43,725 nucleotides of DNA from an uncultured Veillonellaceae bacterium (GCA_964609115.1 CAZSRN010000001.1:1-43725), one strand, 5' to 3'; shown: positions 3,898-39,217, counted from the stretch's first letter. Notes: generated from the letters alone by a model not told the origin. Numbers and translations are program-made.

Positions 3898-4284
3898 TTA
3901 CTTCTTGATTTCTCCGTGTTTTTCCTCGTTTTTCAGCTCAGTAATTTGATTCGCATCATTGAGAAAAGCTACAGTAGGCTTCCAGTCTTTTGCCTCACGA
4001 TCATCCATTACTGCATAAGTTATGATGATCACTTTATCGCCCGGTTGAACCAATCGGGCGGCGGCGCCATTGAGACAGATAATTCCAGAACCACGCGGGC
4101 CGGGAATCGCATAAGTTTCCAAACGTTCTCCATTGTTGATGTCAACTACTTGAACTTTTTCATTGATCAGAATATCCGCAGCGTCCATAAGATTCTCATC
4201 GATCGTAATGCTACCGACATAATCCAGACAGGCTTGCGTCACCGTTGCCCGATGTATTTTGGATTTGAATAACGTTCGCAACAT
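3898..4284 (-). CDS. panD: Aspartate 1-decarboxylase
   Basis: [29 protein letters not shown] contains the self-processing G-S site. Start set at the ATG at 4284, behind a GGGAGGGGA RBS. Confidence 0.93.
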
Positions 4285-4285
4285 A

Positions 4286-5143
4286 CTACTTCCCCTCCCA
4301 GAGCAAATTATCAATCAATCGGGTATTGCCAAACCGGACAGCCAACGCAATCAAAGCGGTGCCGGAAATTCGTTCCACCGGTTCAAGATTCAACGAATCT
4401 ACAATCGCAATATAATCAATGACGGCCAAAGGTTCCTGTTCAATCTGTTCTCGTATAGCCGATAAAATCACTTTTGAATCAACTTTCCCCTCCGTCAGCA
4501 ACTGCCTGGCATTGTCCAGTGATCTCGACAATACAACCGAAGCTTTTCGTTCAGCCGTCGTCAAAAATTGATTGCGGGAAGACAATGCCAATCCATCCTC
4601 TTCTCGCACGATTGGAACGGCGACAATCTTCACATTCATATTCAGATCTTCTACCATACGACGAATTACGACTACCTGCTGGGCATCCTTCTGTCCAAAA
4701 TAAGCAACATCAGCTTCGGTGATATTGAAAAGCTTAGTAACAACAGTGGCAACTCCACGGAAATGTCCCGGTCGCGACGCACCGCACAAGGTTGTCGTGA
4801 TCTTTTCAACATCTACAAACGTTAATGTCTTTCCATTTCCGGCCGGATACATTTCATCAACGAATGGAGCAAACAAGATATCGATTCCCGTCGTTTCAGC
4901 CATTTTTCGGTCCCGTTCCAAATCGCGCGGGTATACGGAGTAATCTTCCTTCGGTCCGAACTGCAATGGATTCACAAACAACGTTGCAATCACAAAGCTC
5001 TGTTCTTGCCGTGCGCGGCGCATGAGTGTCAAGTGTCCCTCATGCAGGTACCCCATTGTCGGTACCACGCCAATTGTTTTACCGGCGACACGAGCCTCTC
5101 GAATTTTTTCCTTCAATTCTCCAATGTGGGAAACTACCTGCAT
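4286..5143 (-). CDS. panC: Pantoate--beta-alanine ligase
   Basis: [15 protein letters not shown] (HIGH-like motif), FVNPLQF and YFGQKDAQQ are typical of PanC. Confidence 0.95.
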
Positions 5144-5227: not shown

Positions 5228-5382
5228 TTGCGTCCCCCGTCTCGGTCGCTCAGGATCCAAGCGGTTTTGGGAAGTCCCTATTGGTTTGTCCAGACCCTTT
5301 TCGTGCAGCTCACAGCGGATGCCGCCATAGTTCGCCACAATAGTAGCATTTTACCGAAATCGAGTCAATACAGGGACGCAAG
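5228..5382 (-). ncRNA. Candidate structured RNA element (cis-regulatory leader of panCD, or a processed sRNA) between the thioesterase gene and panC
   Basis: An ORF-free 155-nt segment. Its ends form a long helix: minus-strand UUGCGUCCCUGU (5370-5382) pairs with ACGGGGGACGCAA (5228-5240), extended by CUCG/CGAG and GGU/ACC. Internal hairpins are also present. The class is not identified. Confidence 0.35.
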
Positions 5383-9803: not shown

Positions 9804-9873
9804 GCTGTTCTTTCCTCACACCTAGCGTTTTCGCCGTCATCCGGCTTTTCCCTGTGTTTTTTTGCGGGCTTCG

Positions 9874-9897
9874 CAAAAAAATGGAGCCGAAGGCTCA
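9874..9897 (-). terminator. Intrinsic terminator after the 431-aa gene
   Basis: The minus strand reads GAGCC-UUC-GGCUC followed by CAUUUUUUUG. Confidence 0.5.
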
Positions 9898-9963
9898 TGC
9901 TCATTCATAATATATTCAAATTCATCTTGACGCAAGTAGTATGAAAATATTTTTTCTCAGTGA

Positions 9964-11352: not shown

Positions 11353-11841
11353 TCAAAATTCGCACTGTGCGAGTTGATCCTGAGCCGGCACCTGAATCTT
11401 TCTCAGCGTGTTAAGCCGAACCGTACGCTGCCCATTTGAAGGTTGTTTCCCTGAAGTTGCATACGCCAATGCCCCAGGCCCATTAAAAACAATGTCCGGA
11501 ACACCTTCATCCGAAAGTTTCATGACAATCAAATGTTGTGGGACCTGTTCACTGCGCAATACAACCGTTTCGCCTTGAGCGGGCTTGATTTGGACCAGGA
11601 TGGACTTATCCCGGGTCCGGGCATTATGAATTTTGCTGGAAGCGGGCAGCAGTTCAAGGTCAAAGCAGTGTGCAGCCAAAACTTCACAGAAGCTTTCAAT
11701 TTGGTGTCCATCGGGAGTAAAGCTTCTTTTGGGAAAAAGTTTGTCCAATTCAGATGTTACAGAAAAAAATTGACAAATCAACTGGCTGACTTTTGCGCTG
11801 GACAATGTTGGCTCAACTCCTTTAACAGGTACGATAAACAC
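11353..11841 (-). CDS. Hypothetical protein, up to 162 aa; start uncertain
   Basis: The ORF opens with a GTG at 11841. An in-frame TTG at 11805 lies behind an AAAGGAG RBS and is an alternative start. No family recognised with confidence. Confidence 0.55.
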   Translation of the reverse strand: MFIVPVKGVEPTLSSAKVSQLICQFFSVTSELDKLFPKRSFTPDGHQIESFCEVLAAHCFDLELLPASSKIHNARTRDKSILVQIKPAQGETVVLRSEQVPQHLIVMKLSDEGVPDIVFNGPGALAYATSGKQPSNGQRTVRLNTLRKIQVPAQDQLAQCEF

Positions 11842-11876
11842 TTATAAATTATTTGACATTTATTTCATTTTCCCTC

Positions 11877-11904
11877 GGGACCATGGTCCTATTTTTTTGA
11901 GACT
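11877..11904 (+). promoter_or_regulatory. Composite motif site A: GGGACCATGGTCCT, 8 nt, GAGACT
   Basis: A perfect GGACC-AT-GGTCC palindrome with a GAGACT box, in the gap between the phosphatase gene and the 162-aa gene. Same architecture as sites B to E. Confidence 0.4.
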
Positions 11905-11956
11905 CCAGTCCCTCTCTGTAAAAAAGTTCTTTCGTCCCGTTTTTTCAAACCATCAG

Positions 11957-12667
11957 TTACGCCTGCCAGAATTGTTGCGATGGGAGCTCCATAACAGTCA
12001 GGGGACCACCCCATGCGGCGCCGGTATCCAAAAAAATTTTATGTTCCCGTATCAGCGGCTTTGATATGTCCGTCACATCAGGAATTAATTCATACCGGGC
12101 CAGATACTGTATGGGAGTATGACCCGTCACCACGTCTTGCGGTCCCCGATATCCCTGTATATAAGGTTCACGTAACCATATAAGTTCTTGGGGAGACTGT
12201 TGTTCAAGCGAAATTCCAGGTCTTATTCCCGCATGAACAAATAAAAATCCCCATTCTTCATGCCACCGGGGCAATGATTGAAAAAAAGCCACATGTTCAT
12301 CCAGCAAATCAGATTGGTTTCGATAACTGGCAAGAGTGACCTCTCCGCCATTCGCATACCACTGTTCAATTTCTTCCTGCGACAAATGCATATTTTTTCG
12401 ATCTTTTAATGCCTGTCGCATCATATCTTCATGATTTCCATACAAAGCCACCGCACCCGATTCTACAAGGTGCATTACCATGGATACGGTCCGGTTGGAG
12501 TCTGGACCCCTGTCCACATAGTCGCCCAATAAAACCAGGCGATCCTGCTTCGGCTTATATCCCGCCAAGCTCAATACCCGCTTCATTTTTTCCAACTGCC
12601 CATGTATATCACCCATAACCAACAATCGTTGGTTTGGTCTACCGGCTTGTTCCATCTTTTCGGACAT
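11957..12667 (-). CDS. PPP-family metallophosphoesterase (Ser/Thr phosphatase, PrpE/ApaH-like)
   Basis: Carries the GDIHG, GDYVDRG and GNHE signature motifs in the canonical order. Confidence 0.85.
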   Translation of the reverse strand: MSEKMEQAGRPNQRLLVMGDIHGQLEKMKRVLSLAGYKPKQDRLVLLGDYVDRGPDSNRTVSMVMHLVESGAVALYGNHEDMMRQALKDRKNMHLSQEEIEQWYANGGEVTLASYRNQSDLLDEHVAFFQSLPRWHEEWGFLFVHAGIRPGISLEQQSPQELIWLREPYIQGYRGPQDVVTGHTPIQYLARYELIPDVTDISKPLIREHKIFLDTGAAWGGPLTVMELPSQQFWQA

Positions 12668-12730
12668 ACATTACCCCTTTTCCGTCATTGAACTGTATGG
12701 AACTTCGACATTTCTTCCTTCGGCTCCTGC

Positions 12731-12772
12731 AAAAAAAGAAAACCTTCAACCCTAATCGGGCTGAAGGTTTTC
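12731..12772 (-). terminator. Intrinsic terminator after flp copy 1
   Basis: The minus strand reads AACCUUCAG-cccgauuaggg-UUGAAGGUU followed by UUCUUUUUUUG. Confidence 0.75.
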
Positions 12773-12788
12773 TTTGGGTTGTCTCTTG

Positions 12789-12950
12789 TTACAGCGCCGC
12801 AGATACGGCGTTAAACTGGGCCAGAACTTGCGGTCCGAGGGCTATGAGACCCGCCATGCCGACTACGGCTACCAGAGCAAGAATCAAACCATACTCGACC
12901 ATCCCTTGACCTTTTTTGTTTTGGAGAACAAAAGTTAACATCGTGAACAT
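12789..12950 (-). CDS. flp: Flp-family type IVb prepilin, copy 1 (53 aa)
   Basis: Own translation: MFTMLTFVLQNKKGQGMVEYGLILALVAVVGMAGLIALGPQVLAQFNAVSAAL. It has the Flp motif G/xxxxEY (GQG-MVEYG), a hydrophobic stretch and a GGAGG RBS. It is too short for the supplied ORF track. Confidence 0.85.
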   Translation of the reverse strand: MFTMLTFVLQNKKGQGMVEYGLILALVAVVGMAGLIALGPQVLAQFNAVSAAL

Positions 12951-13004
12951 TGTGTAAATCCTCCTCTATTTTTTTATTTGATATGCTGTTTGCTTTCTGA
13001 GTTT

Positions 13005-13013
13005 ATTGTAACA
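13005..13013 (-). promoter_or_regulatory. Extended -10 promoter element (TGT TACAAT) for flp copy 1
   Basis: Minus-strand TGTTACAAT about 55 nt upstream of the ATG. Conserved in position with the flp2 and flp3 elements. Confidence 0.5.
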
Positions 13014-13041
13014 AGCTTTATAAAGAGTTCCATCATACGCA

Positions 13042-13070
13042 AGTCTCAATTACCATGGGAACCGGGTCCC
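13042..13070 (-). promoter_or_regulatory. Composite motif site B: GGGACCCGGTTCCC, 9 nt, GAGACT
   Basis: Lies upstream of the flp1 promoter. Read on the minus strand. Confidence 0.4.
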
Positions 13071-13174
13071 ACACTACACGCAAGACCAAAGCTCCATCAC
13101 TCTGGTGCCTTTTCGCTCTGTTATTATCGTTCCAACCTGCACGCGCCGACTGGTTTCAATCCATTATTCATAAT

Positions 13175-13210
13175 AAAAATCCCCCTGGCTTTTTAAGCCA
13201 GGGGGATTTT
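13175..13210 (-). terminator. Intrinsic terminator after flp copy 2
   Basis: The minus strand reads AAAUCCCCCUGGC-uuaaaaa-GCCAGGGGGAUUU followed by UUAUUAU. Confidence 0.7.
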
Positions 13211-13228
13211 GCAGGTTTCTTTTGCTGT

Positions 13229-13390
13229 TTACAGCGCGCCGGTCACTGTATTAAACTGCGCCAAAACCTGCGGCCCGAGAAGCACGAGACCGGCCATGCC
13301 GACTACGGCTACCAGAGCAAGAATCAAACCGTACTCGACCATGCCTTGGCCTTTCTTGTTTTGGAGAACCGAAGTAATCATTGCGAACAT
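13229..13390 (-). CDS. flp: Flp-family type IVb prepilin, copy 2 (53 aa)
   Basis: Own translation: MFAMITSVLQNKKGQGMVEYGLILALVAVVGMAGLVLLGPQVLAQFNTVTGAL. RBS GAGGGAGGG. Confidence 0.85.
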   Translation of the reverse strand: MFAMITSVLQNKKGQGMVEYGLILALVAVVGMAGLVLLGPQVLAQFNTVTGAL

Positions 13391-13448
13391 GATATGAACC
13401 CTCCCTCAATTTTTTGTATTTGGTTTACGTTGCTTGCTTTCTGACTTT

Positions 13449-13457
13449 ATTGTAGCA
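13449..13457 (-). promoter_or_regulatory. Extended -10 promoter element (TGC TACAAT) for flp copy 2
   Basis: Minus-strand TGCTACAAT. The -35 is weak (ATGGAA). Confidence 0.5.
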
Positions 13458-13485
13458 AGCTTCACAGAGGGTTCCATCATACGCA

Positions 13486-13514
13486 AGTCTCAATTACCAT
13501 GGGAACAGGGTCCT
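13486..13514 (-). promoter_or_regulatory. Composite motif site C: AGGACCCTGTTCCC, 9 nt, GAGACT
   Basis: Lies upstream of the flp2 promoter and overlaps the last codons and stop codon of the ICMT-like gene. Confidence 0.4.
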
Positions 13515-14176
13515 ATACTCCCGCGTGACCGAATGCCTATCAACCCGGTTCGTTCATGATAATACGCATACTCGGGAAATGTTTGCAGCAACAATTTTTC
13601 TTCCCGCCGCAGACGCAACATCAAAAATGCGATTTGCGATATGGAAGCAATCAGCATCAGCCAGCTTGGAAACATCAAGACGTCGGCAACTGCCCAAACC
13701 ATGTAACAAACATACAGCGGATGACGCGAATATTTGTATGGCCCGTTCGCAACCACCGCATGCGCCTCCGGTACAACCGTCAAACAATCTCCAAGACAGA
13801 AAAGCGACCATATCACGAATGGATAGGGCAGAACCGAAAGAATAACTCCCAGCCTGCGAAGCTCTGCCATAAATCCTTCACCCACATGAGGCGCCGAAAC
13901 GAACATAACAATTACGCTAAATCCAAAGGTTGTACCTAATCCGATAATCATTGAAGAAATGCGGGCATCTATTTTCTTTGGTTGCTGTAACAAACTGCGG
14001 GTCAAAAAATAAATATCCAAAGCGCTTACAGCAATAATTGGAATTCCCCACAATATATGGTGCAGCGACTGTGAAAGGCGCATCAATGTAAGAAAAATAA
14101 TTACAACCATAAATAAAGTTACCGAACCGCTGGCCAAAAACCGCAAGTATTGTTGCCGGATTTCATGTGAGTTCAT
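13490..14176 (-). CDS. Integral-membrane methyltransferase of the isoprenylcysteine carboxyl methyltransferase (ICMT)/PEMT family
   Basis: Multi-pass membrane protein whose C-terminal signature is NGPYKYSRHPLYVCYMVWAVADVLMF...LRREEKLL. Start set at the ATG at 14176, behind an AAAGGAGG RBS. Confidence 0.75.
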   Translation of the reverse strand: MNSHEIRQQYLRFLASGSVTLFMVVIIFLTLMRLSQSLHHILWGIPIIAVSALDIYFLTRSLLQQPKKIDARISSMIIGLGTTFGFSVIVMFVSAPHVGEGFMAELRRLGVILSVLPYPFVIWSLFCLGDCLTVVPEAHAVVANGPYKYSRHPLYVCYMVWAVADVLMFPSWLMLIASISQIAFLMLRLRREEKLLLQTFPEYAYYHERTGLIGIRSRGSIGPCSHGN

Positions 14177-14203
14177 TTTCCAGCCTCCTTTCTCCAACAC
14201 TTT

Positions 14204-14239
14204 ATAAAAAGACCCCCGACCTTTTGCAGACCGGGGGTA
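14204..14239 (-). terminator. Terminator-like hairpin after flp copy 3, about 28 nt upstream of the ICMT-like start
   Basis: The minus strand reads ACCCCCGGUC-ugcaaaa-GGUCGGGGGU followed by CUUUUUAU. Confidence 0.6.
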
Positions 14240-14258
14240 TCCACTGGTTAGTTGTTGT

Positions 14259-14420
14259 TTACAGCGCGCCGGTCACTGTATTGAACTGCGCCAGAACCTG
14301 CGGCCCGAGAAGCACGAGACCGGCCATGCCGACTACGGCTACCAGAGCAAGAATCAAACCGTACTCGACCATGCCTTGGCCTTTCTTGTTTTGGAGAACC
14401 GAAGTAATCATTGCGAACAT
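14259..14420 (-). CDS. flp: Flp-family type IVb prepilin, copy 3 (53 aa, peptide identical to copy 2)
   Basis: The own translation is identical to copy 2, with two synonymous differences. Confidence 0.85.
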   Translation of the reverse strand: MFAMITSVLQNKKGQGMVEYGLILALVAVVGMAGLVLLGPQVLAQFNTVTGAL

Positions 14421-14522
14421 GATATGAACCCTCCCTCAATTTTTTGTATTTGGTTTACGTTGCTTGCTTTCTGACTTTATTGTAGCAAGCTCCGCAGAGG
14501 GGGCCATCATACGCAAGTCTCA
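14259..14522 (-). repeat. Direct repeat unit 2 (flp3 CDS, 5' UTR and promoter)
   Basis: See unit 1. Identity ends right after the GAGACT box. Confidence 0.9.
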
Positions 14523-14544
14523 TTTGTTTTAGGTATAGCGTCCT
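14516..14544 (-). promoter_or_regulatory. Composite motif site E (degenerate): AGGACGCTATACCT, 9 nt, GAGACT
   Basis: Lies upstream of the flp3 promoter. The left half-site and the GAGACT box are kept; the right half-site is degenerate. Confidence 0.3.
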
Positions 14545-14579
14545 ATTTTTAGTTCATATCAAAATGTATCAATCAAAAG

Positions 14580-15719
14580 TCAGCTGCCTGAAGGTACCGA
14601 AAGCACGACCTTGGTGCCCCGTCGGGGGGCGGATTTGATTGATAACTTTCCTTCCAGCAATTGTATTCGTTCCTGCATTCCCGTCACTCCATAATGCCCT
14701 GCCGGCAGCTCCTCCGACTCCGCATCAAACCCTTTTCCGTCATCTTCTACAACAACCGTCACTCCGGACGGCGCGAATTCGATTCGCACCTTTATGGAAG
14801 ATGCCTGTGCATGTTTTATAACATTATTCAACGCCTCTTGAACAATCCGAAACATCCCAATTTCAATATGAGGTTCCATTCGTCGCTCTTTGCCGATAAC
14901 CGCAACCTCAGTAAAAAGACCGTATTGCTCCCGAAAAACGTCCAATATCCCACGGACAGTCGGTACCAAGCCCAGATCGTCCAGCGCCATAGGCCGCAAA
15001 TCAAAAATAATCTTGCGAATTTCCGCCAAGGTACTGCGAATATGCTCACGCAATGCTTTCAATTCAGTTTTGGCCCGCTCTGCGTCCGTCTCAATCAAAC
15101 GTTCACAGACTTCTGCGCGGAAAACAATGTTGGCAATCGCCTGCGCCGGGCCATCGTGAATATCGCGGGCAACTCGTCGTCGCTCCTCTTCCTGACTACG
15201 GATAATCTGCGCCCCAAGCGCATGCGCATTCTGCAAATTTTCGATTTGGGCAAAGGCTGCGTTCATCTGATTCCCCAGATAATCCAATACCACACCCACT
15301 TGTGAAACCAACTGCTCCGCTTTGGAAACCGTTCCGCTCAGCGTGCGCAGCCGTCCTTCCAGATCATCCCTCTGTCTGCGCAAATTCTGTTCCTGCTCCC
15401 TGGCTACTGCGACATCAATCTGAATCTTGCGGGCATCGTCATAAGCTTCCCTGATTTCTTCCTCAGTACGGTTTTTAAAATCCCGGCTGACTTCCATCAG
15501 ATGAATGCGCGCTTTACGTTCGTTTCGTTCCAATTCATCCACTTTATAAATAATCGCGGCGGTTTCATCCTTAACGCGATCAACATCGCGCTTCACATTG
15601 TCCAGTTCCTCCCGCGCCATTTCATAAACGTCATAAATCTGCCCACGCCCGTCGTAAATACTGGCAATTGTCTTTTTTATAATTTTATCGAGGGTCTTAA
15701 CATTCACATCCTGTATCAT
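14580..15719 (-). CDS. degS: Cytoplasmic sensor histidine kinase, DegS-like (coiled-coil N-terminus, HisKA_3, HATPase_c)
   Basis: Close to B. subtilis DegS by eye: EEERRRVARDIHDGPAQ (H-box), IIFDLRPMALDDLGLVPT, and the N and G boxes (QEALNNVIKHA, DDGKGF, GVTGMQERI). No TM segment. Its ATG overlaps the tadB stop as ATGA. Confidence 0.8.
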   Translation of the reverse strand: MIQDVNVKTLDKIIKKTIASIYDGRGQIYDVYEMAREELDNVKRDVDRVKDETAAIIYKVDELERNERKARIHLMEVSRDFKNRTEEEIREAYDDARKIQIDVAVAREQEQNLRRQRDDLEGRLRTLSGTVSKAEQLVSQVGVVLDYLGNQMNAAFAQIENLQNAHALGAQIIRSQEEERRRVARDIHDGPAQAIANIVFRAEVCERLIETDAERAKTELKALREHIRSTLAEIRKIIFDLRPMALDDLGLVPTVRGILDVFREQYGLFTEVAVIGKERRMEPHIEIGMFRIVQEALNNVIKHAQASSIKVRIEFAPSGVTVVVEDDGKGFDAESEELPAGHYGVTGMQERIQLLEGKLSIKSAPRRGTKVVLSVPSGS

Positions 15720-16690
15720 ACTTCAATATCCACGATACGGCGAATGACCAGAATCCCTATTATCTGTCCCACCAGCGCAACTCCCAACATTATTTTTCCG
15801 ACAGGATGCACAAACAGCACCCGAATATAATCCGGATTCAAGACATAAATGACCACTCCCAAAGCTAATGGCAGCAGACTGACGATGATGCCGGAAATTC
15901 GGCCCTGTGCGGTCAGTGTTCGAATTTCACCCCGAATACGCACCCGTTCCCTGATAGTCTTGGCAATATTGTCGAGCACTTCCGAAAGATTCCCTCCCAC
16001 CTGACGCTGAATCAGCACAGCCGTCAGCACCAGGTCAAGATCGTCCGAATCAATACGCTTCGCCAGATTTCCCAGTGAAGTTTCTATCGTAATCCCTAAA
16101 TTCATTTCTTTGACGGTCCGGGCAAATTCAGTGGAAATTGGCGGACGCATCTCCTGCGCAACCATATCCGCCGCCTGCATGAAGCTATACCCTGTCCGCA
16201 GCGAATTGGCAATCAGAATTAGCGCATCGCCCAATTGTCCATTGAAAGCCTTCATCCGTTTGGCAGTCCTGATGTTCACCAATAAAAACGGTATTGAAAA
16301 ACCAACGATAGCGCCGACGATTCCCAATAGCACGGAGCCGCCGCCTATCAGCAGCAGCAGAATTGCCAGTAAAAGAGCCGATCCGCCGCACAGCGCAAGA
16401 AACTCGCCGCTCCGGATTGGCAGACCGGCTCTGAGCATGCGATGCTCCAACGAAAGGGTCCATCGGGGAGATTCCAGATAGCGCCCAATATTGCGCAGCA
16501 ATCCGCGCACTCCGGTGGCCTCGCCTCCCTGATAAGGGAAAGACGACGGTTCGGAAGTCAGATCAGCCCCCTGAACAACCTGATCCAATCGTCTGCCTAC
16601 AACACGTTTCTCGGCCGTTGCCAGCTGATAGACCAGCATAATGATTGTGCTTAGTGTTAAAAATACGCCGATGGATATGAGGAAAATCAT
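15716..16690 (-). CDS. tadB: Tad/type II secretion platform protein (T2SS-F domain, TadB-like)
   Basis: FNGQLGDALILIANSLRTGYSFMQAADMVAQEMRPPISTEF...QRQVGGNLSEVLDNIAKTIRER...LTAQGRISG matches the TadB/TadC family. Start set at the ATG at 16690, behind an AGGAGAG RBS. Confidence 0.85.
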   Translation of the reverse strand: MIFLISIGVFLTLSTIIMLVYQLATAEKRVVGRRLDQVVQGADLTSEPSSFPYQGGEATGVRGLLRNIGRYLESPRWTLSLEHRMLRAGLPIRSGEFLALCGGSALLLAILLLLIGGGSVLLGIVGAIVGFSIPFLLVNIRTAKRMKAFNGQLGDALILIANSLRTGYSFMQAADMVAQEMRPPISTEFARTVKEMNLGITIETSLGNLAKRIDSDDLDLVLTAVLIQRQVGGNLSEVLDNIAKTIRERVRIRGEIRTLTAQGRISGIIVSLLPLALGVVIYVLNPDYIRVLFVHPVGKIMLGVALVGQIIGILVIRRIVDIEV

Positions 16691-16703
16691 AGCACCATCT
16701 CTC

Positions 16704-17912
16704 CTATCGGCCAAAAAGCTTGAAGCGTAAAGAGCGCTTGCCTGCAGTGTTCTCCGCATCCGGTTCCGGCGGAGCCAAAATGGCAGCCAAGGCCAAAATC
16801 CGTTGCGTTACCGGGCATTCCGGATTTGTGATGACAAACGGAACCCCTTTGTTGATTGAACTTACAACCGTCTTGGCGTCCGTAGGAATCAATGCCGCAA
16901 ATGTTTTTTTCAACGTCGATTCCACTTCCCGCGAATCAATGCCGCCTTCTGGAGTTGCCCGGTTCAACACCAACATGATTTTTTTGTCTTCATACCCAAG
17001 TGATTGCATGATTTCCAACGCAAGTTTGGTGTTTTTTACCGTTGGCAAATCCAGTGCTGCGACAAGCAGGATAAAATCTGATGCGTCCAGCGCCGCAATC
17101 GTTGTTTCACTAAAGGAAGAAGCTGTGTCCACAATAATATAATCATAGGCGCTCCGCAACTGTTTCAATACGGATCCCATGAGAGTTCCCGTTACACTTT
17201 CCGCCTGTTCCGGTCGTAGAGGCGCGGCCAATACCTGCAGCTGTTCGCTATAGGGGGTCATGTAGGATGATAAAATTTTATCTTCCAGTTGCCCTTTTTC
17301 GGCGCCAACATCCGCAATGGTGCTGCGTGGCAAAACATTTAAAACCAGCGCGGCATCACCAAATTGGATGTCTGCGTCCACAAGTGCAACCTTGGTCGCC
17401 GGACGAAATGATAATGCAGCCGCAAGATTAACGGCAATAGTCGTCTTCCCGACCCCGCCTTTGCCTGAAAAAACACTGATCACCCGACCGGGAACTTTGT
17501 CGCCGGATTTCTGCGTAAGAACATCCCGGATCTTACGATCGCGATGATAGGCATCCTTCACTGCGTTGATCAGTTCATCGCCGGTAAACGGTTTGGTCAG
17601 ATAGTTTTTCGCACCGGCCATCATGGCGCGTCGCAAATATTCCTGCTCGCCTTGCACACTCATAATGATAATGGACGTTTCGGGTATCTCCAGACTTAAC
17701 CGCTCAGTAGCGGCGATTCCATCCATCCCCGGCATATTGATATCCATTAAAATGATGTCCGGGCGCAGTTTCTTAGCCTGAGCCAGCGCTTCTTCCCCGC
17801 TGCAGGCCTGCCCTACAGCCTCGATTTCCGGCTGAAACTCCATTAGTTTTTCTATATTTTCCCGGGTCGTTGCTACGTCATCAACGATTAGGACTTTGAT
17901 TTTTTCGCTCAT
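16704..17912 (-). CDS. cpaE: Response-regulator receiver domain fused to a CpaE/TadZ-like ParA/MinD ATPase
   Basis: The REC domain has DD, an acceptor Asp in ILMDINMPGMDG and a Lys in LTKPF. It is followed by the deviant Walker A SGKGGVGKTT. The start overlaps the secretin stop by 32 nt. Confidence 0.85.
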   Translation of the reverse strand: MSEKIKVLIVDDVATTRENIEKLMEFQPEIEAVGQACSGEEALAQAKKLRPDIILMDINMPGMDGIAATERLSLEIPETSIIIMSVQGEQEYLRRAMMAGAKNYLTKPFTGDELINAVKDAYHRDRKIRDVLTQKSGDKVPGRVISVFSGKGGVGKTTIAVNLAAALSFRPATKVALVDADIQFGDAALVLNVLPRSTIADVGAEKGQLEDKILSSYMTPYSEQLQVLAAPLRPEQAESVTGTLMGSVLKQLRSAYDYIIVDTASSFSETTIAALDASDFILLVAALDLPTVKNTKLALEIMQSLGYEDKKIMLVLNRATPEGGIDSREVESTLKKTFAALIPTDAKTVVSSINKGVPFVITNPECPVTQRILALAAILAPPEPDAENTAGKRSLRFKLFGR

Positions 17913-19152
17913 CCGTTTTCACCCCCGCCGGGTTCTGATTCATGTGGTCTTTTAACTCCTGTGACATACTCGGCACTAACGCCTGTGGATCGACGATCAT
18001 CGGAGTCACGAGAATGATCAGTTCCGTCTCCCCTTTTGTGAAACTTGTGCTGCGAAACAACTGGCCAATTACCGGGAGATCTCCCAGCAAGGGAAGTTTT
18101 GTCACATCCCGGGTAATATCATTGGAAATCAATCCACCGATCGCCATAGTCTGACCGGACGACAGCGCAATGGAAGTTTCCGCCTTGCGCATTCGGATTG
18201 GCGGAATTTTTATGTTGGTTCCCAGTTCAATCTTATTGACCGAATTCCATTCCATGGCACTCACTTCAGCCTTGACTTTGCTGGTTATAATCCCGTCAAG
18301 GCTTGCTTCCGGCGTAATCTCCAGCTTGATGCCATAATCTTTCCATTCAATACTGATCTGCCCATTCTGATTACTGACAGGCACGGGAATTTGCCCTCCC
18401 ACCAGCATGCTTGCCTTATCGCCGCTCAGCGTCACCATGTTCGGCTGTGAAAGCAACTTGGCATACCCATTTTGTATCATCAAGTTGATTTGGGCATTTA
18501 TCGGAGCGTAATTACCAAAGTTACCAGCCATCGAGGTCGATCCAGTATTGGATTGGCTTTGGCCGACATAAAATATTCCGGGGGATGTTGTGGCAGAATT
18601 ACTGTAATATTTCAATCCCAGGTCCTGTGTTTTCATTCGGTTAATTTCCACAATTTTTGCTTCGATTTTAATTTGAATCGGCTTGGCAATCTCCAGCAAA
18701 TTCACTACTTTGTCGCCATACGCGCCTGCAATTTTCTCCGCTCGTAATCGTTGGTACTGATCATTTACAGTCCCTTCCAAAATCACTGTTTTATTAACTT
18801 TCACAACACGAATATCCGGGTACCCGAGAATGCGTTTGATTTCGTTGGCGATTGCCGGATCGTTGGCCGCTACTTCCACCTGATAAGATTGCTTCCCCAT
18901 GTTCGACCACACAATCAAGGTAGTCGTGCCGGTTTGCTTGCCCACAAGAATCAGTTCCGAGCTGGAAACGACAACAACATCCGCTACGTCAGGATTGGCA
19001 ATCGCTGCTCGTTGCAAGCCGTACATCGTTATCGTCCTGGATTGGCCCGCGCCCACCGTCATCTTGGTTGGCGCTTCCGCCGCCACAACACCCACAGGCG
19101 ATAGAACGATGAAAAAACATAGCAGGATTCCAGACAACAGTAATTTTCTCAT
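17881..19152 (-). CDS. cpaC: Tad-type outer-membrane secretin (CpaC/RcpA family)
   Basis: Signal peptide MRKLLLSGILLCFFIVLSPVGVVAA, a pilus-N domain, a BON-like segment, and a secretin C-domain with LPLLGDLPVIGQLFR. Start set at the ATG at 19152. Confidence 0.88.
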   Translation of the reverse strand: MRKLLLSGILLCFFIVLSPVGVVAAEAPTKMTVGAGQSRTITMYGLQRAAIANPDVADVVVVSSSELILVGKQTGTTTLIVWSNMGKQSYQVEVAANDPAIANEIKRILGYPDIRVVKVNKTVILEGTVNDQYQRLRAEKIAGAYGDKVVNLLEIAKPIQIKIEAKIVEINRMKTQDLGLKYYSNSATTSPGIFYVGQSQSNTGSTSMAGNFGNYAPINAQINLMIQNGYAKLLSQPNMVTLSGDKASMLVGGQIPVPVSNQNGQISIEWKDYGIKLEITPEASLDGIITSKVKAEVSAMEWNSVNKIELGTNIKIPPIRMRKAETSIALSSGQTMAIGGLISNDITRDVTKLPLLGDLPVIGQLFRSTSFTKGETELIILVTPMIVDPQALVPSMSQELKDHMNQNPAGVKTDERKNQSPNR

Positions 19153-19168
19153 GTTCCCATCACCCCTT

Positions 19169-20041
19169 TTACTCAATTTTCGTCCCTCGAATCACCATAA
19201 CACCAGGTACTCCCTTGGATGCGTCTTGAAAAACTCCCGCTGCGGGCGCCGGGACTGCAGGTGAAGCCGGTTGTTCTTTTCCTGTTTGTACAGGTGATTT
19301 TTGGATTCCAACAATGTCGGTTGGTGTAACCGGCTGTACCGCTGCCACTCCTGTTTCCGGCAGAAATGGGCGCAACGTCAACCTTAATTTCCCCTTTTCC
19401 TCCGCCAAGGTCACTTTTGTCGCTTCCTCAGGCGAGACTGCCAGTGTCACGGTTGATAGTTTAACCACCCCGGCATCTTTGGCTGCATCTTTTTTCCCAT
19501 CCCGTTCCTGAGGCACTTCGCTTTCACGATTCACGGCCAACACCGGTACATTTTGCAACAAAATCTGGCTGACATTCCCGCCGGCCACCTGTTGATCAAA
19601 GGTCACAATAGCGTCAACGGAATCCCCTGCCTTTAGAAGGCCGGATACTCCCGTTACATCAGAAACCGCAATCGTTAATGCCCGCTTACCGGCAGGAATT
19701 ACTCCTGTAAACCCCGCTTGCTTGCCTGCCGTAAGCAGCCGGCGTTCCAACACCTGTTCTCCCCCCACGATGGCTTCCCGTGTCATTATCCCCAAAACCT
19801 TTGATAAATCCCGTACCGCGCCGCTTTGTATATAGTCGGCCGGCATCTGCGATTCTTGAACCATGTCGGAAGTGATTTTCGTCTTCGGGGGAATATCAAC
19901 CTTGGCCGTAATAACAGTTGCCAACTCTGAAGGTGGCGGCTGTTGAGCGCTCTCCCGCAAAAAATTAAAAACAAGGACTGCTGTAATCAGGCTTAATGCC
20001 AATGCGATTCCCAACAGTCCCTTGCTTGACAACTTTGCCAC
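19169..20041 (-). CDS. cpaB: Flp pilus assembly protein CpaB/RcpC (SAF domain)
   Basis: One N-terminal TM segment, then a SAF-like ...ITSDMV...P.... region and the RcpC-like GFTGVIPAGKRALTIAV...GLLKAGDSVD. Start set at the GTG at 20041, 8 nt after an AAGGAGG RBS. Confidence 0.85.
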   Translation of the reverse strand: MAKLSSKGLLGIALALSLITAVLVFNFLRESAQQPPPSELATVITAKVDIPPKTKITSDMVQESQMPADYIQSGAVRDLSKVLGIMTREAIVGGEQVLERRLLTAGKQAGFTGVIPAGKRALTIAVSDVTGVSGLLKAGDSVDAIVTFDQQVAGGNVSQILLQNVPVLAVNRESEVPQERDGKKDAAKDAGVVKLSTVTLAVSPEEATKVTLAEEKGKLRLTLRPFLPETGVAAVQPVTPTDIVGIQKSPVQTGKEQPASPAVPAPAAGVFQDASKGVPGVMVIRGTKIE

Positions 20042-20076
20042 CGGGTCTCCCTCCTTCACGCCACATTCGTGGTTTC

Positions 20077-20105
20077 ATTGTACAGGAGCCTCGACTAAAC
20101 CTCAA
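20077..20105 (-). promoter_or_regulatory. Candidate sigma-A promoter of the cpaB operon (-35 TTGAGG, 17 nt, extended -10 TGT TACAAT)
   Basis: Read on the minus strand, about 35 nt upstream of the cpaB start. Confidence 0.5.
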
Positions 20106-20134
20106 TAGAACAGTCATTCAAGCGATGCAACTTC

Positions 20135-20163
20135 AGTCTCATTTTTTATAGGACCCGTGTCCC
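20135..20163 (-). promoter_or_regulatory. Composite motif site D: GGGACACGGGTCCT, 9 nt, GAGACT
   Basis: Lies upstream of the cpaB operon promoter, in the corA-cpaB gap. Confidence 0.4.
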
Positions 20164-20178
20164 TTTTTTAGTTACACG

Positions 20179-21315
20179 TCACAACCACTTTTTAGTGCGA
20201 AAATATCGCAGCATGCCCAATGTAACCAGTCCCATAACGGTCCAAACGGCAAAATAACCATACTTCCACTTTAGTTCCGGCATATATTCAAAATTCATGC
20301 CATATACGCCGGCAATAAATGTTAACGGAATGAACAGTGTCGAAATGATCGTTAACACTTTCATTACTTCATTCAATCGGTAACTGATGCTCGACAGGTA
20401 AATGTCCAGCATGCCGGAAATCAAGTCTCTATAAGTTTCTACAGTATCGATGACCTGAATAATATGATCGTAAGCGTCCCTCAGATAGGGGCCCGTCTCA
20501 GCGGAACAAAAGCGTGAGCTACAGCGTTCAAAGGTCCCGATAATCTCCCGAACCGGCCAAACTGCTTTATGCAAGTACATCATCTGCCGTTTGAACGCAT
20601 GAATCTGCCGCAACAACGGGGGTCCCGGCTGCCTAACCAACTCTTCATCAAGAAACTCTATCGCGTCTCCCAAGTCCTCCAGCACCACAAAGAACTGATC
20701 CACCATTACATCCAGCAATGCATAAGCCAGGTAGTCGGCTCCCTGAGTCCTCAGCCGTCCTTTCCCGTTCAAAATACGCTCTCTTACAGGAGTAAATAAT
20801 GACCCGTTACTTTCCGCAAATGATATAACCCAATTTTCGCCAAACAGCAGGCTCACCTGCTCGAATGATATATCCAATTTGTGATTTGTTTTCACAGAAG
20901 ATTTATGGTGAGGATTTGCAACCGCCGCCTCATGCTGCGCAAACGGAATTCGCGCCACCAAAAACAAGTACTGATCATACTCCTCAAACTTTGGTCGCTG
21001 CGTGGTATTCAGAATATCTTCCAACACCAAGGGGTGAATCGAAAATTGCCGTCCAATCTCCTCTATCGCATTCACATCATGAATTCCGTTAATTTCGATC
21101 CAAGATATAGTACGTGATGGATGAAACGGCAATAATTTTTCCCATTCATCGAATTCCCGGGTGTTGGCGCCAGTCGCGTCAAAGTCTGTCTGGCGGACCC
21201 GGATTTTTTCCGAATAAACCGCTCCGACATGTGTCAGCGTTCCCGGCGGAAACCCCTTTTTCCCTGCATAAGCAGTTGAGATGCGTTTCAGAGGATCACC
21301 CCGTAATTTTATCAT
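20179..21315 (-). CDS. corA: CorA-family magnesium/cobalt transporter
   Basis: The C-terminus carries YGMNFEYMPE (GMN motif) between two TM helices. Confidence 0.9.
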   Translation of the reverse strand: MIKLRGDPLKRISTAYAGKKGFPPGTLTHVGAVYSEKIRVRQTDFDATGANTREFDEWEKLLPFHPSRTISWIEINGIHDVNAIEEIGRQFSIHPLVLEDILNTTQRPKFEEYDQYLFLVARIPFAQHEAAVANPHHKSSVKTNHKLDISFEQVSLLFGENWVISFAESNGSLFTPVRERILNGKGRLRTQGADYLAYALLDVMVDQFFVVLEDLGDAIEFLDEELVRQPGPPLLRQIHAFKRQMMYLHKAVWPVREIIGTFERCSSRFCSAETGPYLRDAYDHIIQVIDTVETYRDLISGMLDIYLSSISYRLNEVMKVLTIISTLFIPLTFIAGVYGMNFEYMPELKWKYGYFAVWTVMGLVTLGMLRYFRTKKWL

Positions 21316-21454
21316 TTTGACAAATTCATTCTTATTTTCAGAATTTGACGTTGATGGACAAAAGTCCTTCTCTATTCAGCAGATGCGAGTATTAAAATTC
21401 CATAACCCAAAATGCAGAAACTAGCCCGACGTGTGGAAAATTCGACAAAGATAG

Positions 21455-30234: not shown

Positions 30235-30399
30235 ATCCACTCCCCTTTTACCCTTTGTTTTCGCGGGAAAAACCCGATTTGATTGTACCATATACCCGGA
30301 AAACTGCAAGAATAATTTTATGAAATATAAAAAACAAGGGCTGCCTTTTTCAAAGCGGCCCTTCTTGATGCCCAATTCATGAGTCTGTGAGAAGCCAAT

Positions 30400-34295: not shown

Positions 34296-34612
34296 CAAAA
34301 TCCGAAACAATTTCATACGCAAAATTTAAATTGTGATGACTGGGAGCGGAATAAATGCAGATCCCGTTTCAGAGAGCCGGTGTTTGGTGCGAACCGGTAC
34401 GGAGCGTTGATTCTAAATCACCCATGAACTGCTTATCGAACTTATCTGCATGAGTTTTCGCGGATAATGTTGTAGAGTAAGACGTAAGGCCTGCGTTAAA
34501 GACCAGCCGGTGATAGCCGGTGGAATGAGTACAATTCAGGGTGGTACCGCGGAAATTCCGCCCCTGACGCTACGTTTGACAACGTAACGTCAGGGGCGTT
34601 TTTTATTTTCCA
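34296..34612 (+). promoter_or_regulatory. T-box riboswitch leader with terminator; probable isoleucine (AUC) specifier
   Basis: Stem I elements GUGAUGA/UGAAC (K-turn), AGAGAG and GGUGCGAA. T-box sequence AAUUCAGGGUGGUACCGCG at 34533-34551. Terminator CCCCUGACGCUACGUU-ugac-AACGUAACGUCAGGGG followed by a U-run at 34561-34608. Confidence 0.85.
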
Positions 34613-37989: not shown

Positions 37990-38161
37990 CTCTTGTTATT
38001 TTTTTAACCCGTGCGACTAATTGATTAGTAAGAAATTCGACGCCTGCGCACCCAGCTCCTTTTTACCCTGTCTTTCATCAATGGGACAAATATTTTGAGA
38101 GCAATATAAAAAATCTTATTGTTTTCTTTAAAAATAGTGATAAACTATAATCAGTAAAAGA

Positions 38162-38244
38162 ATATTTGGCAAATTCGTCGAAAGACGGAGACGCAAAGCT
38201 ATGGGTCTAAAGGTGCTCAGCACCCATGATTGCCAGGTTGCCCT
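38162..38244 (+). promoter_or_regulatory. c-di-GMP-I (GEMM-I) riboswitch aptamer
   Basis: GGCAAA-UUCGUC-GAAA-GACGGA-GACGCAAAGCU-AUGGGUCUAAAGG...ACCCAUGAUUGCC follows the Vc2-type consensus: GNRA tetraloop hairpin, GCAAAGC and GGGYCUAA. A TATAAT -10 lies at 38146-38151. Confidence 0.85.
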
Positions 38245-38286
38245 CCTGAAAGATCGTTTTTACGATTCGTTGTCAGGTGAATTGGT

Positions 38287-38328: not shown

Positions 38329-38775
38329 TTGGCTGTGGTTAAGTACATTGCGTTGGGAGTTGTGTTGATTCTCTCTACCGTGGCAGTCTCCGTCGCGGTG
38401 GCAGTTCCGCTCGCCCTCCAAAATCCTCCCCCCGCAACAACCGTCGCAGCACCGGACGCTTCCTATATGTTCACTCTAAAAAGCAACGAAAAAGACAATT
38501 TCATTGTAACGACACTCGCTGATAAAAGACTCGTACGAATGCAGGTCATTCTAGAGTTGGATAAATCCTTTGAACCCAAGGACTTGAAAAACCCCGACCG
38601 CCAAATGCTGGTTTTGCAAGATTCACTGTTACGGACGATCAGGGCCTGCCGTACGGAAGATCTTTCCGTACAAAATCAAAGTACCTTTAAAAAGCGCATT
38701 GCCGACACGGCGACTCAAATATTGGGAAAACGCGCAGTCCATTCTGTTTATCTGACAGGTCTAACCGTACAGTAA
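38329..38775 (+). CDS. FliL-like flagellar basal-body-associated protein paralogue
   Basis: Single N-terminal TM segment, then the FliL pattern (F.L......R.V.MQVILELD......IRA....EDL....FKKRI......V.SVYLTGLTVQ). TTG start behind an AAGGAAG RBS. Confidence 0.7.
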   Translation: MAVVKYIALGVVLILSTVAVSVAVAVPLALQNPPPATTVAAPDASYMFTLKSNEKDNFIVTTLADKRLVRMQVILELDKSFEPKDLKNPDRQMLVLQDSLLRTIRACRTEDLSVQNQSTFKKRIADTATQILGKRAVHSVYLTGLTVQ

Positions 38776-38905: not shown

Positions 38906-39115
38906 TTATAAAGGTGAACACTGCAAGATTCGATTCACAATCGAACGAGGATCCCAATGGAACACTGCCGGAACGTTCTCCGTCTGCTCATTCGAAGAAC
39001 TGACATACTGCACTTTTACTCCATCCGCCCCTCGGGTAATTATGATCTTTTCTTTTGTTGCATCCACTTCCGTGTCAATCACCATCAGGCCGGATATAGT
39101 ATCGAAGCGAATCAT
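38906..39115 (-). CDS. Small hypothetical protein (69 aa)
   Basis: AAGGTGG RBS 9 nt before the ATG. Lies downstream of the PilZ gene. No family recognised. Confidence 0.45.
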   Translation of the reverse strand: MIRFDTISGLMVIDTEVDATKEKIIITRGADGVKVQYVSSSNEQTENVPAVFHWDPRSIVNRILQCSPL

Positions 39116-39217
39116 TGCAATCAGCCACCTTATTATATTTGTAACTTTTTAATTTCGCCCCCCTCTATTTTTTACCTTGAGACATACGTCCCGTTTAGCA
39201 CGGGACTTTGGTCCTAT

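Follow-up and report, generated by a model that had tools for sequence, protein, structure and literature searches.

The stretch of DNA that we analysed (the window) comprises 43,725 nt from an uncultured Veillonellaceae bacterium (GCA_964609115.1) and carries a Tad (Flp) pilus locus (Table 1). The cpaB operon ends with a gene for a DegS-family histidine kinase, which gives a full-length match to the Pfam DegS domain (2e-50) as well as a HisKA_3 match. Full-length orthologues of this kinase occur in 47 related loci, and orthologues are present in all complete Negativicutes tad loci. The same operon encodes a TadZ/CpaE ATPase whose receiver domain shares 38% identity with that of the DegU-like regulators. 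A 295-nt direct repeat, present in three copies, holds three of the sites described below (B, C, and E), which had rightly been treated as nonindependent copies of one duplicated flp unit.

Table 1. Features of the tad locus and of the inverted-repeat sites in the window
Feature	Coordinates	Strand	Remarks
DUF6998 gene	11353-11841	-	Putative regulon member; true start codon uncertain
Site A, single inverted repeat	11876-11891	-	TAGGACCATGGTCCCG, then conserved GAGGGAAA and TGTCAAATA; upstream of DUF6998 gene
GAGACT beside site A	11899-11904	+	Absent there in all seven orthologous loci
flp pilin genes (three)	12789-12950, 13229-13390, 14259-14420 (span 12789-14420)	-	Each with its own module
Site B, proximal repeat	13033-13048	-	GAGACT at 13042-13047; extended -10 at 13005-13013
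Site B, distal repeat	13056-13071	-	TGGGACCCGGTTCCCA; flp1 promoter; 9/12 matches to ideal repeat
Site C, proximal repeat	13477-13492	-	GAGACT at 13486-13491; extended -10 at 13449-13457
ICMT-family gene	13490-14200	-	Between flp3 and flp2
Site C, distal repeat	13500-13515	-	TAGGACCCTGTTCCCA; flp2 promoter; overlaps final codons of ICMT-family gene
flp3 extended -10 element	14479-14487	-	TGCTACAAT
Site E, proximal degenerate repeat	14507-14522	-	TGAGACTTGCGTATGA; GAGACT at 14516-14521; overlaps -35 region
Site E, distal inverted repeat	14530-14545	-	TAGGACGCTATACCTA; flp3 promoter; inferred centre about -65.5
DegS-family histidine kinase	14580-15719	-	DegS, HisKA_3, and HATPase_c domains; last gene of cpaB operon
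T2SSF-family (TadB/C-like) gene	15716-16759	-	cpaB operon
TadZ/CpaE ATPase	16704-17912	-	N-terminal receiver domain with canonical DD, D57, S, and K107
cpaB and secretin gene	17881-20041 (cpaB, 19169-20041; secretin, 17881-19176)	-	Transcribed from predicted promoter 3' of site D
Predicted cpaB promoter	20077-20105	-	TTGAGG-17-TACAAT; TCTATTGAG.TT and C.TGTA.AAT invariant in alignment A2
Site D, second degenerate repeat	20126-20141	-	TGAGACTGAAGTTGCA; GAGACT at 20135-20140; offset 23 bp from start of distal repeat
Site D, distal inverted repeat	20149-20164	-	AGGGACACGGGTCCTA; upstream of cpaB; GGAC and GTCC invariant in 12/12 relatives
69-aa ORF	38906-39115	-	No family match; putative regulon member
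Sixth site	39178-39216	-	TAGGACCAAAGTCCCG, then CGGGACGTATGTCTCA 23 bp later; between PilZ/YcgR gene and 69-aa ORF

The original prediction listed five composite sites (A to E), each consisting of a palindrome followed by GAGACT, and all five were found with their coordinates and strands. The core of the motif is a 16-bp inverted repeat, TAGG-N8-CCTA, with the ideal form TAGGAC-N4-GTCCTA. Allowing up to two mismatches, the ideal form occurs five times in the window against 0.43 expected, a count that none of 100 shuffles reached. The excess was similar for RGGAC-N4-KTCCY (8 strand-hits; 0.33 expected) and for GGAC-N4-GTCC (5 occurrences; 0.27 expected). GAGACT by itself was at background (11 versus 9.3 expected). 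The combination of palindrome and GAGACT exceeds background. GAGACT is not a separate element; it belongs to a second, degenerate 16-bp repeat that begins 23 bp promoter-ward of the first and has (T)GAGAC(T) as its left arm. Across the window and 80 related loci, the hexamer T[AG][AG]G[ATG]C lies 22 to 24 bp downstream, in the direction of the gene, of 31 of 70 strong palindromes (background, 0.58%; P = 3e-50). In mirror orientation it accompanies only 1 of the 70, so the second repeat is oriented. The palindrome is two-fold symmetric over about 16 bp, with conserved arms and a free centre both at cpaB (12/12) and in the flp promoters, and in the full module an A-rich flank lies beside it. A sixth palindrome is present at 39201 to 39216, followed 23 bp on by a GAGAC-type palindrome (39178 to 39193); the original prediction had not found the combined motif elsewhere in the window. 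Two related loci (L083 and L084) conserve a double palindrome ahead of their homologues of the 69-aa ORF.

At cpaB, the centre of the distal repeat lies at about -86.5 relative to the inferred transcription start, and the spacer between the two repeats is A-rich. In an alignment of 12 related cpaB promoters (A2; CpaB identity, 65 to 77%), GGAC, GTCC, the A-tract, and the ATG.GAC of the second repeat are invariant in 12/12, whereas bases differ between relatives in the N4 centre and in the flanks. The sequence TGnTACAAT, which had been reported downstream of all five sites, was found in the window only at 13005, 13449, and 14479 (the flp promoters) and at 30282. It thus follows sites B, C, and E, but the -10 region 3' of site D lacks the canonical TGn, and site A is not followed by a -10 element in the orientation that had been assigned to it. 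In the flp3 promoter, the distance from GAGACT to the downstream TACAAT is 31 nt, a register shared with 26 Negativicutes flp promoters. Aligned on the extended -10 element, these need no gaps and give the consensus aaTa.GaC....t.CCtA....AaaT.AGACt..cG.acGATG...TG.TA.AAT.

Site A had been read on the plus strand, towards GAGACT; it works the opposite way, on the minus strand, towards the DUF6998 gene. ATAGGAC-N4-GTC(C/A) is kept in seven of seven orthologous DUF6998 promoters (L001, L003, L005, L006, L008, L009, and L010). The adjacent GAGACT is probably fortuitous, since none of the seven orthologous loci has it at this position and site A is not followed, in the plus orientation, by a -10 element of the TGnTACAAT kind.

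In dozens of Negativicutes and Clostridia, the module is conserved, with its register kept, in front of cpaB, flp, and tadE, the kind of conservation that the original prediction had named as support. In Sporomusa-type loci and in Anaeroselena, tadE/tadG are preceded by this module, there made up of two or three repeats in 23-bp steps. Among the loci that carry the kinase, the 300 nt upstream of cpaB or flp make up 3.1% of the sequence but contain 41 of the 57 strong sites (1.48 versus 0.018 sites per kb; P = 4e-49). The motif is above chance frequency in the window and biased towards promoters in the kinase-carrying loci. Sites A and D, described as independent of the flp duplication, proved to be so, and each is kept at orthologous positions in diverged genomes. 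The view that the motif is the operator of a dimeric regulator with a small regulon is supported, and the comparative data on the cpaB, flp, DUF6998, and 69-aa ORF promoters strengthen it.

The half-site and spacing point to a family of regulators. The DegU-P footprint in the fla/che promoter of Bacillus subtilis covers a perfect 5-8-5 inverted repeat, CTAGG-N8-CCTAG. This repeat lies some 40 bp upstream of the -35 box, from which an A/T-rich UP element separates it (Mishra et al., bioRxiv 10.1101/2023.08.04.552067). TAGG-N8-CCTA equals this footprinted site in half-site and spacing, but since the 2023 study did not find a DegU consensus across the genome, the match rests on the one footprinted promoter of that report (bioRxiv 10.1101/2023.08.04.552067). 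An older proposal for the DegU consensus differs (GNCATTTA) and comes from a source that also mentions varied repeat arrangements for NarL sites (PMC2245950). The likeness to fla/che extends beyond the half-site (C)TAGG and the 5-8-5 repeat. Between the end of site D and its -35 box there are 44 nt, with an A-tract adjoining the site, and protection in B. subtilis extends promoter-ward from the repeat, comparable to the second degenerate repeat here. In each system a long operon encoding a surface appendage is the target, with a DegS-family kinase as the signal source (here proposed). Unlike in B. subtilis, the targets are Tad/Flp pili rather than flagella, SwrA is not expected, the inner AC...GT is conserved where the B. 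subtilis 8-bp spacer is T-rich/AT-rich, and in Negativicutes a DegU-type gene does not adjoin the kinase.

Other NarL-family regulators show related architecture. The boxes of LiaR, CesR, and VraR, read by a dimeric NarL-type HTH, consist of a 16-bp inverted repeat and a neighbouring A-rich stretch that binding requires (PMC4447274). They differ from the present sites in half-site (TCAGHCTnnAGDCTGA for CesR) and in regulon (cell-envelope stress), and no LiaFSR-type gene context exists here. The tripartite ComA site of B. subtilis and the 7-2-7 sites of NarL likewise pair a 16-bp inverted repeat with promoter-side half-sites needed for activation. Their half-sites differ in sequence from those found here, and the additional ones are spaced differently. 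Direct activation of a pilin promoter by a response regulator, as we propose here, has a parallel in Tad/Flp regulation of Proteobacteria such as Caulobacter, where CtrA activates the pilA promoter; CtrA is of another family (OmpR type), binds another motif (TTAA-N7-TTAA), and has no operon-embedded kinase gene.

HisKA_3 kinases partner NarL-type regulators, and the DegS-family kinase is likely the signalling input to the regulator. The original prediction had not linked this kinase to the motif; its statement that the cluster encodes no DNA-binding protein was correct. A search of the window and of 10 kb on both sides of cpaB in each of 43 Negativicutes loci revealed no LuxR-type HTH gene. 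In Clostridia and in one Aneurinibacillus metagenome-assembled genome, a NarL-family regulator gene lies directly 3' of a full-length kinase orthologue (41 to 46% identity), and the order kinase, DegU-like regulator, palindrome, and then flp or cpaB is found in L045, L047, L055, L062, L069, and L072. Compared with a B. subtilis DegU sequence, the clostridial regulator is 40% identical and has an identical SEKTVKNH helix, which we treat only as a lead. As the best 120 homologues of this regulator all come from Clostridia, a DegU orthologue in the present organism is an assumption, and because none of the Negativicutes loci yielded the regulator gene within 10 kb, we infer the identity of the regulator.

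Our preferred reading, to which we assign a probability of roughly 0.6, is that the motif forms the cis-regulatory module of a Tad (Flp) pilus regulon, with tandem DegU-type operators activating the pilus promoters. Dimers of a NarL/FixJ-family, DegU-type response regulator would bind the distal 16-bp repeat first, as the presumed high-affinity site, and then the proximal repeat cooperatively. In the flp promoters, the proximal repeat would be centred near -42.5, over the missing -35 element and upstream of the extended -10, so that direct recruitment of RNA polymerase by the regulator would follow (class II activation). In the cpaB promoter of this clade, the module appears to sit 21 bp (two helical turns) further upstream, before a real -35 element, in what would be a class I geometry. 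The signal would reach the regulator from the kinase encoded at the end of the cpaB operon, which would close a feedback loop, and the kinase may phosphorylate the TadZ receiver domain too.

The kinase could also signal solely to that receiver domain, which would speak against a DegU-type regulator. The sites may instead be operators of a dimeric factor of another type, perhaps an HTH protein encoded elsewhere, and the kinase would in that case act on TadZ only. We consider this possible but doubtful. The TadZ receiver keeps all canonical phospho-acceptor residues and resembles DegU-like receivers, the 43 Negativicutes loci searched have no nearby LuxR-type HTH gene, and the link to DegU consists of synteny in another class and likeness to a single footprinted site. 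Set against this are the many clostridial loci in which the palindrome lies directly 3' of a DegU-like gene, the match to the DegU-P site, the combination of a 16-bp repeat and an A-tract typical of the NarL family, and the established pairing of HisKA_3 kinases with NarL-type regulators.

It is very improbable that the sites are sporulation boxes for SpoIIID or GerE, which would link the pilus genes with the mother-cell programme of those Negativicutes that form spores. The idealised SpoIIID site is TAGGACAAG, and GerE recognises TRGGY. There is a likeness between the left arm, ATAGGAC, and the SpoIIID core, and between TAGG and a GerE half-site, but SpoIIID needs GGACA, and the base that follows GGAC here can be A, C, G, or T. 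SpoIIID occupies its site as a monomer, whereas these sites have strict two-fold symmetry, with the partner arm conserved at a fixed distance of 8 bp. The module is also found with DegS/DegU genes, not with sporulation genes.

We give still less credence to RNA or single-stranded DNA hairpins, acting as intrinsic terminators of upstream genes or as processing sites. Site A looks terminator-like on the plus strand, and sites A and D come after the stop codons of upstream genes. However, the stems are short (4 to 5 bp) and weak (-2.6 to -6.3 kcal/mol), mostly no better than in shuffled sequence. In the gene direction the stems are not followed by a U-tract; the sole fit is site A on the plus strand, where no gene lies. 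It is the sequence of the arms that is conserved, compensatory changes are absent, degenerate arms (flp3 and distant cpaB sites) break the pairing, and the module is present without a gene ending upstream in L013, L014, and L036. An Rfam search at all sites gave no match to a structured cis-regulatory RNA.

Recurrence by chance plus duplication of the flp unit would fit the shared origin of sites B, C, and E, the background frequency of GAGACT, and its lack of conservation at site A, but is effectively refuted by the extreme shuffle and positional tests, the invariance of the cpaB promoters, the 23-bp offset statistics, and the conservation of sites A, D, and the sixth site, independent of the duplication, at orthologous positions in diverged genomes. 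Nor do the sites behave as interspersed REP or MITE repeats: only the three flp units share flanks, and sites A, D, and the sixth site have in common just the 16-bp core, at fixed distances from -10 elements.

Beyond tandem DegU-type operators at this locus, we tentatively suggest an ancient DegS-DegU circuit for Tad pili in Firmicutes, in which one soluble kinase, encoded within the pilus operon, would have two outputs. The first would be transcription of the cpaB, flp, and tadE operons through a DegU-type regulator bound to tandem TAGG-N8-CCTA repeats, and the second would be assembly or placement of the pilus through the phosphorylatable receiver domain of TadZ. In Negativicutes, the regulator gene would have parted from its kinase. 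If this is true, TAGG-N8-CCTA would be the sequence that DegU ancestrally recognised; in B. subtilis, the recognition site has proved elusive.

All five sites (A near 11877, B near 13070, C near 13514, E near 14544, and D near 20163) were found where the original prediction had placed them. In the window, RGGAC-N4-KTCCY gave 8 strand-hits against 0.33 expected, GGAC-N4-GTCC gave 5 against 0.27, and TAGGAC-N4-GTCCTA with up to 2 mismatches gave 5 against 0.43, a count of at least 5 being reached in 0 of 100 shuffles. GAGACT by itself occurred at background frequency. Four of the five strong 16-mers were intergenic (intergenic DNA makes up 12% of the window), and the fifth lay within the last codons of the ICMT-family gene. 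Sites B, C, and E, which precede flp1, flp2, and flp3, had been described as duplicated units, and they are indeed members of one 295-nt direct repeat present in three copies. The motif had also been thought confined to these five places, which did not hold: a sixth palindrome was found at 39201-39216. A further perfect GGAC-N4-GTCC core (GGACCCCTGTCC, 12504-12515, plus strand) lies within the metallophosphoesterase coding sequence.

The genome is that of a Sporomusaceae-like member of the Negativicutes. Its closest CpaB relatives are Negativicutes MAGs (65 to 77% identity), with Dendrosporobacter, Sporomusa, and Anaeroselena at about 50%. In Dendrosporobacter and Anaeroselena (L081 and L082; 15.7-20 kb), flp is followed by tadE, tadG, the T2SSE ATPase gene (cpaF), and a second T2SSF gene. 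This block is missing from the window's clade (compared over window positions 11353-14420) and is replaced there by the ICMT-family gene, extra flp copies, the metallophosphoesterase gene, and the DUF6998 gene. As the Pfam tables showed no pilus ATPase in the window, the pilus machinery must be split between loci. The window also holds a T-box leader (34327-34568, plus strand, 94 bits), followed by an operon for an ACT-domain protein, ketol-acid reductoisomerase, and a TPP enzyme of the acetolactate-synthase type. A pan RNA motif match (5233-5328, minus strand, 38 bits, barely over the gathering score) lies upstream of ORFs 4286-5143 and 3898-4314.

Genes discussed in the text, with window coordinates and strand
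Gene	Coordinates	Strand
corA	20179-21315	-
cpaB	19169-20041	-
secretin	17881-19176	-
TadZ ATPase with N-terminal receiver domain	16704-17912	-
T2SSF-family gene	15716-16759	-
DegS-family histidine kinase	14580-15719	-
flp3	14259-14420	-
ICMT-family gene	13490-14200	-
flp2	13229-13390	-
flp1	12789-12950	-
metallophosphoesterase	11957-12667	-
DUF6998 gene	11353-11841	-

We aligned 26 flp promoters from Negativicutes, anchored on their extended -10 elements. They fell in register with zero gaps and gave the consensus aaTa.GaC....t.CCtA....AaaT.AGACt..cG.acGATG......TG.TA.AAT. The distal element is a 16-bp inverted repeat, TAGGAC-N4-GTCCTA (that is, TAGG-N8-CCTA). GAGACT, exactly 31 nt 5' of the -10 hexamer at flp promoters, belongs to a second and degenerate 16-mer, of which it forms the left arm (in the window, TGAGAC-N4-GTATGA). 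This 16-mer starts 23 bp past the first; the two repeats together are referred to as the module. Among 70 strong palindromes from the window and 80 related loci (1.28 Mb), the second-repeat hexamer T[AG][AG]G[ATG]C stood at +22 to +24 on the gene side in 31 (background, 0.58%; P = 3e-50), +23 being the commonest offset. It was seen on the opposite side in 1 of the 70, most likely site A of the window. Assuming a transcription start some 7 nt past the -10 element, a position that we infer, the flp repeats are centered near -65.5 and -42.5; no recognizable -35 element was found at flp promoters. At cpaB of the window's clade, both repeats are shifted upstream by 21 bp (to near -86.5 and -63.5, again from the presumed start) and are followed by a conserved -35/-10 pair, with TCTATTGAG.TT and C.TGTA.AAT invariant. 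The cpaB promoters of more distant Negativicutes carry three boxes, the last of which (TTAAGGC-N4-GTCYGATGA) keeps the 31-nt distance to the -10 element. The extended -10 element TGnTACAAT, predicted behind all sites, was present only at the three flp promoters and at 30282. The predicted promoter at site D, that of cpaB, reads TTGAGG-17-TACAAT instead, and site A, read in the originally chosen orientation, lacks a -10 element.

All 12 close relatives carried the palindrome some 125 nt 5' of cpaB, with GGAC and GTCC invariant and the N4 center and flanks variable. It preceded flp in all relatives that could be examined, and two or three repeats in 23-bp steps preceded the tadE/tadG/cpaF operon (Sporomusa-type loci, Dendrosporobacter, and Anaeroselena). 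The conservation anticipated upstream of tad and flp orthologues was thus found at the cpaB, flp, and tadE/tadG promoters of relatives. Within kinase-carrying loci, 41 of 57 strong sites fell in the 3.1% of sequence located up to 300 nt upstream of cpaB or flp, a density of 1.48 per kb upstream of these genes against 0.018 per kb (P = 4e-49). A second cpaB locus, diverged to about 47% identity, was present in several Negativicutes MAGs and in Lucifera (L003/L025, L004/L017, L005/L020, and L036/L042). It comes with an flp gene of its own and with an upstream sequence that is conserved but different; among these second loci, a strong palindrome occurs only in the Lucifera copy (L042). The cpaB upstream regions of Sporomusa-type loci (L018, L019, L021, L022, L024, L028, L031, and L035; about 9840-9960) contain an extra long conserved block, CTAAGTCCTAAAGAAAATAGGAGAATCTCCTCGCTGGTTTTT, which includes the inverted repeats TCCTA...TAGGA and GGAGAATCTCC.

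The conserved form of site A faces the DUF6998 gene on the minus strand, opposite to the orientation first proposed. It is kept as AAATAGGAC-N4-GTCC(C)GAGGRAA...TGTCAAA upstream of that gene in 7 of 7 loci having it. Because the adjoining GAGACT is absent from all seven, we treat it as fortuitous. The sixth site, upstream of a 69-aa ORF, consists of TAGGACCAAAGTCCCG followed 23 bp on by CGGGACGTATGTCTCA, a double palindrome kept upstream of homologues of this ORF in two metagenomic relatives. A c-di-GMP-I riboswitch aptamer (38158-38245, plus strand, 75 bits) directly precedes the FliL-like gene (38329-38775). This aptamer is some 1 kb away from the PilZ/YcgR gene and the sixth palindrome, which makes c-di-GMP control a neighbor of the palindrome regulon. 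In two Firmicutes relatives, a c-di-GMP-I-type riboswitch lies between the palindrome and flp (L044, 7713-7797; L045, 4825-4913); with this arrangement, the pilin would be under transcription-factor plus c-di-GMP control. We rejected the GGAC-N4-GTCC upstream of corA as a module, as the palindrome is not conserved and is part of a different conserved leader sequence (21330-21400, minus strand), in which GGACAAAAGTCC at 21356-21367 forms the perfect palindrome core. The corA leaders of relatives have GCAGGACTTTTG...GTCAAA in common, with an upstream TTCCTGCC possibly able to pair, which suggests a conserved and structured leader; Rfam gave no match there.

The sites are very probably (roughly 0.9) protein-binding regulatory sites. 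The operator originally proposed was correct in its core, the motif being real, conserved, and promoter biased. A reading as hairpins or terminators was rejected: the repeats form stems of 4-5 bp (-2.6 to -6.3 kcal/mol) that are mostly no better than those of shuffled sequence, and the transcribed strand lacks a U-tract in the gene direction. The arms are kept as sequence and not through compensatory exchanges, and where they degenerate the pairing is lost. A known RNA family is disfavored by the lack of an Rfam match at the sites. GAGACT as a -35 element (TTGAGA) has no -10 element 16-18 nt on, and CGATG plus GGAAC has, by inspection, the wrong spacing and hexamers for a SigD-type or ECF-type promoter.

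The binding protein is fairly likely to be a DegU-type response regulator. The cpaB operon ends with a kinase gene; its product matches the DegS domain over the full length (2e-50) and also has a HisKA_3 domain, and kinases of the HisKA_3/DegS class partner NarL-family regulators. Full-length orthologues of this kinase (41-46% identity) occur in tad loci of Peptococcaceae, Desulfotomaculia, and Thermoanaerobacterales relatives and of one Aneurinibacillus MAG, each directly followed by a NarL-family regulator gene (about 218 aa). The order kinase, regulator, palindrome, and then flp or cpaB was seen in L045, L047, L055, L062, L069, and L072, several of which (L047, L055, and L069) have a terminator ahead of the palindrome. 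The promoter-proximal box in such loci is again 31 nt from the extended -10 element. The Clostridial regulator is 40% identical to a DegU sequence, with an identical recognition helix (SEKTVKNH), a likeness that serves as a lead only.

The kinase might instead serve the TadZ receiver only. The claim that the cluster encodes no DNA-binding protein was borne out: neither the window nor the 10 kb on either side of cpaB in 43 Negativicutes loci contained a LuxR-type HTH, and in tblastn searches of the window and all loci with the full regulator and its HTH domain, the only match in Negativicutes was the TadZ receiver. No DegU orthologue of the organism was found in the window, and the 120 top-ranking homologues of the Clostridial regulator all came from Clostridia. 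The TadZ receiver keeps the canonical DD, D57, S, and K107. Its identity is 38% with the receiver of the DegU-like regulators linked to tad and 50% with its counterpart in the TadZ of L047. Alongside a DegU-type regulator, it could be a second substrate of the kinase. The DUF6998 protein, which had no PDB relative, was rejected as the regulator, as it is restricted to the closest clade, whereas the motif is much more widespread. The KdpE-type regulators near cpaB in L014 and L026 belong to unrelated KdpD/KdpE pairs.

By analogy, the module resembles a NarL-family activator site, most of all the DegU-P site of the Bacillus subtilis flagellar promoter. There, according to a 2023 preprint from the Kearns laboratory, a perfect 5-8-5 inverted repeat (CTAGG-N8-CCTAG) is protected by DegU-P. 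It is located some 40 bp ahead of the fla/che -35 box, from which an A/T-rich UP element separates it, and addition of SwrA extends the protection in the direction of the promoter (bioRxiv 10.1101/2023.08.04.552067). Half-site, spacing, and placement all match those of the module. LiaR and CesR, also of the NarL family, use 16-bp inverted repeats flanked by a stretch of A residues (PMC4447274), and the module has both features. The DegU consensus has been disputed for decades (bioRxiv 10.1101/2023.08.04.552067; PMC2245950), an older and different version being GNCATTTA (PMC2245950). Candidate membership of the module in the DegU-type operators is supported by its symmetry, half-site, spacing, and kinase linkage.

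These results extend the original prediction by resolving the two-repeat anatomy, correcting the direction in which site A is read, adding a site close to the PilZ gene, showing how widely the module is conserved, and proposing a candidate DegS/DegU pathway. The comparison across distant lineages offers independent support for the recently proposed 5-8-5 DegU site. Regulation of the Tad/Flp pilus in Firmicutes, diderm Negativicutes included, is essentially undescribed, and full-text searches gave no report tying DegS/DegU or any regulator to Firmicutes Flp/Tad loci. The module provides a concrete and testable operator with exact half-sites and spacing and, with the kinase encoded inside the pilus operon, points to a candidate signaling pathway. 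It defines a small putative regulon comprising the cpaB operon, flp, and tadE/tadG and, in the window's clade, also the DUF6998 gene and the 69-aa ORF beside the PilZ gene.
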